DNA of 58,841 nucleotides from a virus (lineage: Duplodnaviria; Heunggongvirae; Uroviricota; Caudoviricetes): the IMG/VR virus record IMGVR_UViG_3300023371_000069. The stretch is one strand, 5' to 3'. Under the pieces are notes generated by a model. It had not been told where the DNA came from. It saw nothing but the letters and a program-made list of their open reading frames with translations, and made no database searches. The translations under genes were made by a program, and so were the position numbers. Each line of letters begins with the position of its first letter. Position 1 is the stretch's first letter. Positions 34,983 to 36,065 of the stretch are shown in pieces.

Positions 34983-36065
34983 ATGTTAAGCGAATTTATG
35001 TTAAAAGTGAGAGACTTGCACGAGGAAATCAGACAGGTAGCTGAACTTCTGAAACCTCAAGAGATGAAAGACCGTATGGCTTATCTCGAAGCTAAGTTCA
35101 ACCACTCAACCTGGAATGAAATTCCAGAAGAGGAGCTGAAGGAATACTCTCGCCTCAAAAAGAAATATGATTTATATTTCGGTATCTGGAATATGTATGA
35201 TGACCTTAAAACTTTAACTGAGTATGCAATAGAGGAAGGCGAAGTCAACTATTTGCATGAATTTGAGATGGATTATAATTACCTCGTCGAGGAAATCCAA
35301 AAGCTCAAGTTAGAGTTAATGTTCACAGGTAAGTACGATTCCTGCAACGCCATTTTAAATATTCATTCTGGTGCCGGTGGTAAAGAAGCACAAGACTGGA
35401 CCAGAATGTTACTTCAGATGTATGCGGCCTGGGCTAGTAATCATGATTTTCAATTCAATATTTTGGATTGGCAAGATGGTGAAGATAGCTCAGTCGTGAA
35501 AAGTGTTTCGGTAGAAATCAGAGGAGAGAATGTATACGGCTTGCTGAACGCTGAGAATGGCGTCCATCGTTTGGTTCGCGTTTCTCCCTTTGATTCTCAA
35601 AATAGACGCCATACTTCATTCGCAGCAGTCGAAGTAATGCCTGAAATCGAGGCAGATAACTCTGTGGAACTCGATATGAAAGATGTTAGAGTTGATACTT
35701 TCCGTTCAAGCGGAAAAGGCGGTCAGCACGTCAATAAGACTGAATCTGCGATTAGATTAACACATATTCCTACTGGCATTGTGGTGGGGTGCCAGCAAGA
35801 GCGAAGTCAACATCAGAACAAAGAAAAAGCCATGAAGATGCTTATCTCAAGGCTGGTTGCTATTAAAGAAAAAGAACACTATGACAACTTGTCTGAAATT
35901 CAGGGCGAGCAGAGTCGAATCGAATGGGGCAACCAAATTCGTTCTTATGTCTTTATGCCATATCAAATGGTTAAAGACCACAGGACTAACCACCAAACTT
36001 CTAATATTGACGCAGTGATGCGTGGAGATATAGATGAATTCATTTTCAAGAGTCTCGCTGAATAA
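34983..36065 (+). CDS. prfB: peptide chain release factor 2 homologue
   Basis: RF2 'anticodon' motif SPF ([16 protein letters not shown]). GGQ catalytic motif ([27 protein letters not shown]). About 360 aa. SD GAGGAGG. Confidence 0.85.
   Translation: [360 protein letters not shown]

Follow-up and report, generated by a model that had tools for sequence, protein, structure and literature searches.

A resident release factor 2 gene, probably of Clostridia origin, in a gut phage with TAG-to-glutamine recoding

Genes for release factor 2 (RF2) have been described in several phages in which the stop codon TAG is recoded. All complete genomes of the Lak phages, which are ca. 550 kb in size and infect Prevotella, carry RF2 and also a tRNA(CUA) (Devoto et al. 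2019, PMC6784885). RF2 was also reported in two TAG-recoded Agate genomes by Borges et al. (bioRxiv 10.1101/2021.08.26.457843), who proposed a model of an early change of code; in the same survey, most TAG-recoded phages had no detectable release factor, and the TGA-recoded Jade phages were found to possess a module of RF1, TrpRS, and tRNA(UCA). A jumbo-phage survey of 2026 again notes RF2 in TAG-recoded phages (PMC13037316). The gut phage phAss-1 (proposed Phassvirus) reads TAG as glutamine and has 36 tRNAs, three tRNA-SUP-CTA genes, and a predicted Clostridia host (PMC10607447). The present study concerns an RF2 gene (phage prfB) located at positions 34983-36065 (+ strand) of a 58,841-nt stretch of DNA from a virus of the Caudoviricetes (IMG/VR record IMGVR_UViG_3300023371_000069); this whole stretch is called “the window” below. 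An earlier note, made from the sequence alone, had pointed to the gene as a phage-encoded RF2 homologue acting beside UAG-decoding suppressor tRNAs, and had described this as a combination known from TAG-recoded phages. The literature agrees (PMC6784885; bioRxiv 10.1101/2021.08.26.457843; PMC13037316): because the pairing of RF2 with a CUA suppressor has been published for Lak, Agate, and jumbo phages (2019; 2021/22; 2026), it is not new here. What the current locus adds is limited, namely a large RF2 clade of Clostridia-type origin with conserved synteny, flanking terminators, a partner gene, and substitutions adjacent to the functional motifs. The reading favored here, to which a probability of about 0.68 was assigned, is that the gene encodes a functional, Clostridia-derived RF2 that is kept by selection and forms part of the code-change toolkit of the phage.

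The open reading frame (ORF) encodes 360 amino acids, begins with ATG, ends with TAA, is open throughout from the ATG, and contains no in-frame TAG. The Pfam PCRF domain was matched at residues 29-216 (E = 8.5e-46; profile positions 2-194 of 194), and the Pfam RF-1 domain was found C-terminal to it at residues 226-334 (E = 1.9e-42; profile positions 3-116 of 116). The NCBIfam model for prfB, TIGR00020, returned 445.5 bits (E = 1.2e-133) against its curated cut-off of 370 bits. All other models stayed below their own cut-offs for this ORF: two RF1 models (262.3 and 250 bits vs. 400 and 423), the PrfH model (136.5 vs. 166.65 bits), and the ArfB model (45.7 vs. 100 bits). The profile searches thus bore out the RF2 identity and assigned the ORF neither to RF1 nor to ArfB, the two outcomes that the earlier note had named as speaking against its assignment. 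The nearest solved structures were the RF2 chains 9fy1 and 6szs (best E = 2.6e-93), with E. coli RF2 at ca. 1e-81; RF1 chains trailed at E values of 1e-57 or worse. The RF2-specific SPF motif occupies residues 201-203 (nt 35583-35591) and the GGQ motif residues 246-248 (nt 35718-35726). Both motifs had been noticed at what was called canonical spacing, and this was upheld; they are 45 residues apart, and the alignment to the solved RF2 structure (PDB 9fy1) is gap-free. The two peptides quoted at that time were located at residues 199-214 and 241-267. No second release-factor-like gene was detected in the window. The ORF is confirmed to encode a complete release factor of class I, and this factor is an RF2.

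In published structures of RF2 on the ribosome, the G-x-x-E tip of helix α5 reads the first base of the stop codon. This tip is G132-G133-K134-E135 in the phage protein, with Lys where Thr is usual, and SPF is followed by an intact RRHT sequence (R208-R209-H210-T211). Among the 93 members of the phage RF2 clade described below, the Ser and Pro of SPF, the two Arg residues and the Thr of RRHT, the entire GGQ, and the Gly and Glu of GGxE are invariant. The exceptions are confined to the Phe of SPF, which is Tyr in 13 members, and H210, which is Gln in 2. On the strength of these conserved recognition residues, the protein is predicted to release peptides at UAA and UGA and not at UAG.

The origin of the gene was approached by comparison with cellular RF2s, as the earlier note had suggested. 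The closest cellular sequences, in two independent searches that agree, are 48-54% identical over their full length and come from Oscillospiraceae and related Clostridia; the closest genera are Oscillibacter, Dysosmobacter, Papillibacter, and Pseudoflavonifractor. Neighbor-joining trees placed all of the RF2s found in a phage context in one clade, whose monophyly was recovered in 145 of 200 bootstrap replicates and whose sister group is the RF2 of Oscillospiraceae/Clostridia. The clade comprises at least 93 sequence clusters and is old, with identities that descend to ca. 53%. Its members share a derived character, K134 (GGTE changed to GGKE), which is present in 93/93 of them and in none of 32 cellular RF2s. 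Following SPFD, the cellular S-[S/N]-[G/A] is changed to SQN; Q206 occurs in 91 and N207 in 85 of the 93 sequences, and neither was found among the 32 cellular proteins. A third substitution, K245 (SGAGGQ changed to SGKGGQ), is carried by 69/93 and again by 0/32. The tree position and the identities suggest that RF2 was probably captured by an ancestor of the phage group from a Clostridia bacterium, probably one of the Oscillospiraceae type. In its PCRF and RF-1 architecture, length, SPF/RRHT/GGQ motifs, and single ORF, the phage gene resembles the prfB of Oscillospiraceae; it departs from that gene in its phage-like composition, the substitutions T134K, S/N206Q, G207N, and A245K, the upstream terminator, and the 134-residue partner protein encoded next to it. 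No full-length RF2 more than ca. 50% identical to it was present in GenBank phage records (INPHARED, release of 31 August 2025).

The RF2 of Lak resembles the present one in being phage-encoded and in sharing its genome with a tRNA(CUA) and with in-frame TAG codons. With an identity of only ca. 45% over 71% of the query and a position outside of the window's clade in the tree, it is regarded as a separate acquisition. It has canonical GGTE and SGAGGQ sequences, SPY in place of SPF, and an insertion after the GGQ region. When it was checked for convergence, no substitution of the K134, Q206/N207, or K245 type was found in it. Two further RF2 genes, from fecal contigs labeled “Bacteriophage sp.”, likewise retain the canonical residues. 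The clade-specific nature of the four substitutions (all 0/32 in cellular RF2s), their location beside each functional motif, and the canonical state of the Lak and two fecal phage RF2s raise the idea that the clade encodes a specialised or neofunctionalised factor with altered RF2 behavior, in the form of stricter rejection of UAG, non-productive occupancy of UAG-containing ribosomes to the exclusion of RF1, independence from methylation by PrmC, or resistance to an anti-RF activity of the phage. This idea and each of these variants are considered quite unlikely. All known residues that contact the stop codon or take part in catalysis are unchanged, the substitutions may be neutral markers that were fixed at the founding of the clade, and the independently acquired Lak RF2 did not converge on them.

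According to one report, many bacteria, including E. coli and B. subtilis, control prfB via a +1 frameshift at CUU UGA; the frameshift, near codon 25, is described there as common and as having been lost in several bacterial lineages (PMC12421855). The earlier note had remarked that the phage gene appears to lack this site, and inspection for the CUU UGA motif gave the same answer: CTTTGA is absent between positions -60 and +200 around the RF2 ATG, the first 60 codons contain no in-frame stop, and no Shine-Dalgarno-like element was present at the position homologous to the bacterial frameshift site. The nearest bacterial RF2 genes, those of Oscillospiraceae, are single ORFs whose sole CTTTGA, at codons 2-4, lies in another frame, and the Lak RF2 is an uninterrupted single ORF. 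Since both of these also lack the frameshift, its absence is not specific to the current phage; the arrangement probably came with the gene from its donor lineage and is not a phage adaptation. A frameshift site is not a defining feature of RF2, and its absence does not count against membership. A candidate vestige of the site (CTT CTG AAA at the homologous position) was rejected; orthologues show TTG CTG, CTA ATG, or TTG TTA at this location, and genes of the donor type have no frameshift.

Many of the “phage” RF2 matches in the databases are short, unannotated contigs that may represent bacterial contamination, and the gene in the window could in principle be a bacterium's own prfB, on a piece of chromosome or in a chimeric assembly. 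This is extremely unlikely. RF2 homologues from 99% down to ca. 55% identity retain one gene order in independent metagenome assemblies: genes for proteins of ca. 435, 570, and 134 residues, RF2, and then genes for a 270-residue protein, a 326-residue M28-like peptidase, and a 466-residue protein. The contigs that share this synteny are 80-158 kb in length, the 158-kb one carrying RF2 cluster P0005. The composition of the gene (GC 40.6%; GC at third codon positions (GC3) 41.8%) is close to that of the window (GC 42.6%), and RF2 genes of Oscillospiraceae have a GC content of 54-62% and a GC3 of 70-90%. Its neighbors either match PHROG families or are unknowns of phage type; matches for the larger ORFs of the window include an ATPase (phrog_2376), a peptidase (phrog_34186), HNH endonucleases, and a sigma factor (phrog_5767). 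Enterococcus phages of ca. 140 kb possess full-length homologues of the two genes at the left edge, and one of these genes also has a homologue in phAss-1. In relatives, the region beyond the sigma-factor gene, which in the window lies past the edge, contains a gene of the phrog_3314 family, a terminase-like gene, and a portal gene. A divergent member of the RF2 clade (53% identity) is surrounded by genes of another large phage, those for DnaB, PIF1, Pol III alpha, and NrdD. The context of a bacterial homologue (P0099) is different; it is flanked by the genes for ribosomal proteins L10 and L7/L12. Comparison with an 88%-identical orthologue (in relative L004) gave dS = 0.90, dN = 0.068, and dN/dS = 0.075. 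RF2 is a resident phage gene under purifying selection.

The recoding of TAG was examined in individual genes. Whole-window ORF statistics were calculated for genetic codes 11, 15, and 4, and every recoding scheme was inflated by shadow ORFs on the antisense strand; homology-anchored tests were used for this reason. The sigma-factor-like gene (phrog_5767; 535-1587, - strand; 350 codons) contains in-frame TAG at 1540-1542, 1495-1497, 1306-1308, and 910-912. Its frame is collinear over 98% with uninterrupted single genes of Enterococcus phages and of Brevibacillus phage Sundance. Next to it, the 5' part of a gene of the phrog_3314 family, cut by the edge of the window (1-492, - strand), has in-frame TAG at 439-441 and 115-117. 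A third case is a gene for an HNH homing endonuclease (39516-40244, + strand) with in-frame TAG at 39621-39623 and 39639-39641; an internal repeat of this gene pairs one of the TAG codons with Gln (WLC[TAG]CECG vs. WICQCECG). The gene is situated between the TAG-free block that holds RF2 and the tRNA array. Borges et al. found that a group I intron endonuclease is preferentially recoded in TGA-recoded Agate phages (bioRxiv 10.1101/2021.08.26.457843).

Three distant homologues of the sigma factor gave no amino-acid call at the window's four TAG codons, and a codon alignment of 66 metagenomic relatives (68-95% identity) was used instead. One to five in-frame TAG codons were present in 48 of the 66, and in-frame TAA or TGA in none. 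Contigs with sigma-factor homologues reach 188-201 kb, examples being OIZT01000010.1, ORMS01000013.1, ULOZ01046417.1, and JAEIGA010000019.1. In the near-invariant Gln columns (window residues 97, 115, 149, 254, and 259), the only frequent codons are CAA, CAG, and TAG; residue 149 is encoded by CAA in 41 relatives, CAG in 7, and TAG in 18, with no other codon observed. The terminase-like and portal genes of the relatives contain 2-11 TAG codons each. An NCBI contig of 39.8 kb (JAEIGA010001205.1) carries an RF2 of 79% identity as well as recoded sigma-factor, terminase-like, and portal genes, with the two regions ca. 33 kb apart as they are in the window. RF2 and TAG status could be linked by means of shared contig names for one homologue only (P0026), and not for P0028 or P0037. 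In a divergent RF2-bearing phage (L091), two adjacent genes in the same frame at 9030-9803 are split only by a TAG, one of them weakly resembling Phage_lysozyme2; the pair suggests that TAG is recoded beside that RF2 too. Judged from the codon alignments, TAG in the current phage is read as glutamine in a subset of genes, comprising late-type genes and some others.

The distribution of TAG in the window is uneven. The block at 29.6-39.4 kb, in which RF2 is located, has 0 TAG in 3,056 codons against 78 CAA/CAG. In the late-side genes, TAG makes up 6 of the 22 presumed Gln codons and CAA/CAG the other 16 (Fisher p = 6e-5 for the comparison with the RF2 block). All genes of the RF2 block end with TAA or TGA. 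Over the + strand ORFs of the window (n = 68), the stops are TAA in 48, TGA in 15, and TAG in 5.

The earlier note had spoken of suppressor tRNAs that decode UAG, and this was substantiated: two tRNA(CUA) genes with Gln-like acceptors are present, in keeping with the TAG-to-Gln assignment from the codon alignment. The first (56434-56508, + strand; 75 nt; Rfam tRNA score 47.1 bits) has U1, G2, G3, G73, and an encoded CCA. The second (56509-56605, + strand; 97 nt; 54.2 bits) has a U1-A72 pair, G73, and a long extra arm. The two genes abut with no spacer, and both share the acceptor end U1/G2/G3 ... G73-CCA with the window's own tRNA-Gln genes. The variable region of the second suppressor holds the extra arm of ca. 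21 nt (a 5-bp stem and a 7-nt loop), an atypical feature for a tRNA-Gln; a Ser-type identity would be compatible with G73 and the long arm in this tRNA. Both suppressors belong to an array of 39 tRNA genes (40706-58671, + strand) that starts 4.6 kb 3' of RF2. The first tRNA of the array (40706-40777, + strand) has no encoded CCA end, unlike the rest, and its anticodon varies among relatives, being CCU in the window, UCU in L004 (15712-15783), and UCA in L006 (12183-12256).

These features can be combined into a mechanism. An ancestor of a group of gut phages, with contigs of up to ca. 200 kb, would have taken up a Clostridia RF2 that was subsequently kept under purifying selection. RF2 and the tRNA array reside in a block of TAG-free genes that end with TAA or TGA, and would be readable by an unmodified host that uses the standard code; because the block is devoid of TAG and its stops are TAA or TGA, such a cell can express both RF2 and the suppressors. 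The genes that contain TAG (in the window those for the sigma factor, its neighbor, and the HNH endonuclease, and in relatives the terminase-like and portal genes) would yield complete proteins only after the suppressors have appeared. Since the sigma factor itself needs suppression of TAG, the code switch probably acts as a gate on late transcription. About 70% of the phage's early genes stop at TAA and about 20% at TGA. TAA is normally served by both RF1 and RF2 of the host. RF2 from the phage would supply a capacity for RF1-independent termination at genuine phage stops; the extra factor could serve all of them without RF1, which is the competitor of the suppressor at UAG. The phage might then tolerate or even promote the loss of RF1 activity at UAG with no read-through at its real stops. 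The need for RF1-independent termination has a parallel in engineered RF1-deficient E. coli. The functional statement of the earlier note, that RF2 keeps termination at UAA and UGA efficient during suppression of UAG, is a plausible one, and a role of RF2 in the code switch is likewise proposed here on the basis of gene content and codon usage.

Several points weigh against this assignment of RF2 to a code-change toolkit. Any benefit would be indirect, given that UAG is not a codon at which RF2 acts, and no function directed against RF1 was found. In general, TAG recoding does not depend on RF2; most of the TAG-recoded phages surveyed have no detectable release factor (bioRxiv 10.1101/2021.08.26.457843), and none is reported in the phAss-1 paper (PMC10607447). 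A syntenic relative, L006 (ERZ28614131 ROVI19-1_SAMN06685544_METAG-scaffold_24), possesses RF2 along with the UCA-anticodon tRNA-like gene mentioned above, i.e. a reader of UGA, and this is hard to square with a simple coupling of RF2 to TAG recoding. Finally, the terminator directly upstream of RF2 (see below) could mean that the gene is weakly expressed.

Some of these same points would be expected if RF2, like the 39 tRNAs, served the general translational self-sufficiency of a large phage that has to maintain protein synthesis through a long infection or after shut-off of the host, with no specific connection to TAG recoding. The near-complete set of tRNAs close to RF2, the pairing of RF2 with a UCA-anticodon tRNA-like gene in L006, and the fact that phages both related and unrelated can recode without RF2 (PMC10607447; bioRxiv 10.1101/2021.08.26.457843) are all in its favor, and the Lak paper counts chain release factors among the possible augmenters of host translation (PMC6784885). 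This alternative is regarded as possible but doubtful. RF2 alone is carried, never RF1, and the window has only the one release-factor-like gene; in published cases the factor goes with the code, RF2 occurring in TAG-recoded phages and RF1 in the TGA-recoded Jade phages (bioRxiv 10.1101/2021.08.26.457843); and in-frame TAG is found in every lineage of the RF2 clade whose late or adjacent genes could be inspected (the window, JAEIGA010001205.1, and L091).

The TGA stops in 15 of the 68 + strand ORFs are relevant to another model, that of Ivanova (2014) in the summary given by Borges et al. (bioRxiv 10.1101/2021.08.26.457843), in which the host reads TGA as a sense codon and has no RF2, and the phage RF2 is a weapon that truncates host proteins at UGA and at the same time enables the TGA stops of the phage itself. 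For the current phage this is very unlikely. The nearest cellular RF2s are from Oscillospiraceae, which carry their own prfB, a situation that is unexpected in a host with TGA as sense; the phage's relatives infect Enterococcus, and the related phAss-1 group is predicted to reside in Clostridia; and Borges et al. predict standard-code Firmicutes or Bacteroidetes hosts for phages of this kind (bioRxiv 10.1101/2021.08.26.457843).

With RF2 taken as a part of the code-change toolkit, the locus can be set beside the described systems. It matches the model of Borges et al. at each point, with the code-change genes written in the standard code as in Agate. RF2 was reported in two Agate genomes, and the window's RF2 clade includes at least 93 clusters with conserved synteny. 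The lengths of related contigs (80-200 kb) and a predicted host of the Firmicutes type would be compatible with the Agate clade; placement there relies on the terminase gene, which does not lie within the window. Jade presents a mirror image, i.e. a factor blind to the recoded stop and a matching suppressor, all in the standard code. The factor and the codon are the opposite ones in Jade, and in the window RF2 and the suppressors are ca. 20 kb apart; no aminoacyl-tRNA synthetase was seen in the neighborhood of RF2, whereas Jade has TrpRS. The distantly related phAss-1 shares a homologue of a late-side gene and a similar tRNA-Ala gene with the window, and differs in having a genome of 136 kb, compared to contigs of up to ca. 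200 kb in the window's group. The locus adds an independent acquisition of a Clostridia-type RF2 next to the Lak case and leaves the current picture unchanged. One molecule holds a TAG-free early block, RF2, two tRNA(CUA) genes of apparent Gln type, and a late-type sigma factor predicted to need the code switch. Such an arrangement would be a natural counterpart of engineered amber-recoded cells, in which a suppressor tRNA is combined with RF1-independent termination, and the phage group is suited to tests of stop-codon recoding as a timer of late gene expression.

The immediate surroundings of RF2 bear on how the gene may be expressed. A Shine-Dalgarno sequence (AGGAGG; 34971-34976, + strand) is located 6 nt 5' of the ATG, and GGAGG at this position is kept in relatives L004, L005, L006, and L090. 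Upstream of it, between RF2 and the gene for the 134-residue protein, is a GC-rich hairpin (34936-34956, + strand; 34936-34966 with the T-run that follows it) that resembles an intrinsic terminator. The RF2 transcription unit ends at a second terminator-like hairpin (36048-36076, + strand; 36048-36086 with its T-run), which has the RF2 TAA in its loop. L004, L006, and L090 retain both hairpins, with differing stem sequences. There is no room for a promoter between the upstream hairpin and the RF2 ribosome-binding site; the sole candidate for the unit formed by the 134-residue protein gene and RF2 is a sigma-70-like promoter (TTGATT-17-TATAAT with TG; 34409-34437, + strand), identified by its match to the consensus. 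RF2 therefore appears, from this layout, to be transcribed by read-through of the conserved upstream terminator, and such read-through may limit its dosage. Over-expression of RF2 is reported to be toxic in E. coli and B. subtilis (PMC12421855). In the proposed mechanism, dosage would probably be set by terminator read-through and not by the +1 frameshift feedback, which is absent.

The gene directly 5' of RF2 (34506-34910, + strand) encodes the 134-residue protein and is paired with RF2 in all syntenic relatives, where the gene preceding RF2 encodes 133-141 residues. The protein has no Pfam or PHROG match and is far more conserved than RF2, with more than 2,200 homologues, the top 120 of which are at least 95% identical; the homologues listed are too alike for useful structure prediction. 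It has a central stretch rich in Ala and Lys and bears the JGI label “glutathione S-transferase”. A specialised release factor whose dosage is determined by the conserved leader terminator and this ultra-conserved partner, in place of frameshift feedback, is an unlikely proposition.

A non-coding segment located between the RF2 terminator and the next promoter (36105-36175, + strand) has the sequence CTGCTCCGGCCGGC ... AGCCCAAAACGAAAAGG ... TAATTTTT, which is conserved in relatives whose RF2 is only 55-88% identical. No conserved secondary structure was detected in this element, it is not repeated elsewhere in the window, and no Rfam family was matched at the RF2 locus when the window was scanned. 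The element may bind a protein upstream of a strong sigma-70-like promoter match (36185-36213, + strand; consensus match) that precedes the gene 3' of RF2.

The RF2 unit is flanked by genes for a Cys-rich protein of 571 residues (32697-34412, + strand) and a protein of 469 residues (38030-39439, + strand), both of which are kept in syntenic relatives. The two are probably paralogues, as both match phrog_18912. In a close relative (L181, on the same contig as the RF2 homologue P0026), the early region encodes a Thg1-family (tRNA-His guanylyltransferase-like) protein and a complete sigma-70-family factor, at 3049-3825 and 4733-5653. An IMG/VR scan with RF2 found no relative, and when 20 kb of the window were compared with GenBank phages by megablast, only two tRNA-sized stretches matched.

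The tRNA array contains additional RNA features. A partial match to OLE RNA (RF01071; model positions 439-592) at 58280-58363 (+ strand) scored 53.5 bits against a gathering threshold of 50, and is probably not genuine. A full-length ROOL RNA (RF03087) is located at 52033-52624 (+ strand), with a score of 312.6 bits (gathering threshold 99.1) over model positions 1-574 of 574. It is followed immediately, at 52631-52766 (+ strand), by a stretch of 136 nt that fits the Rfam tRNA model (33.3 bits) and was not called by ARAGORN; a tRNA interrupted by an intron or a long insertion may be the explanation.

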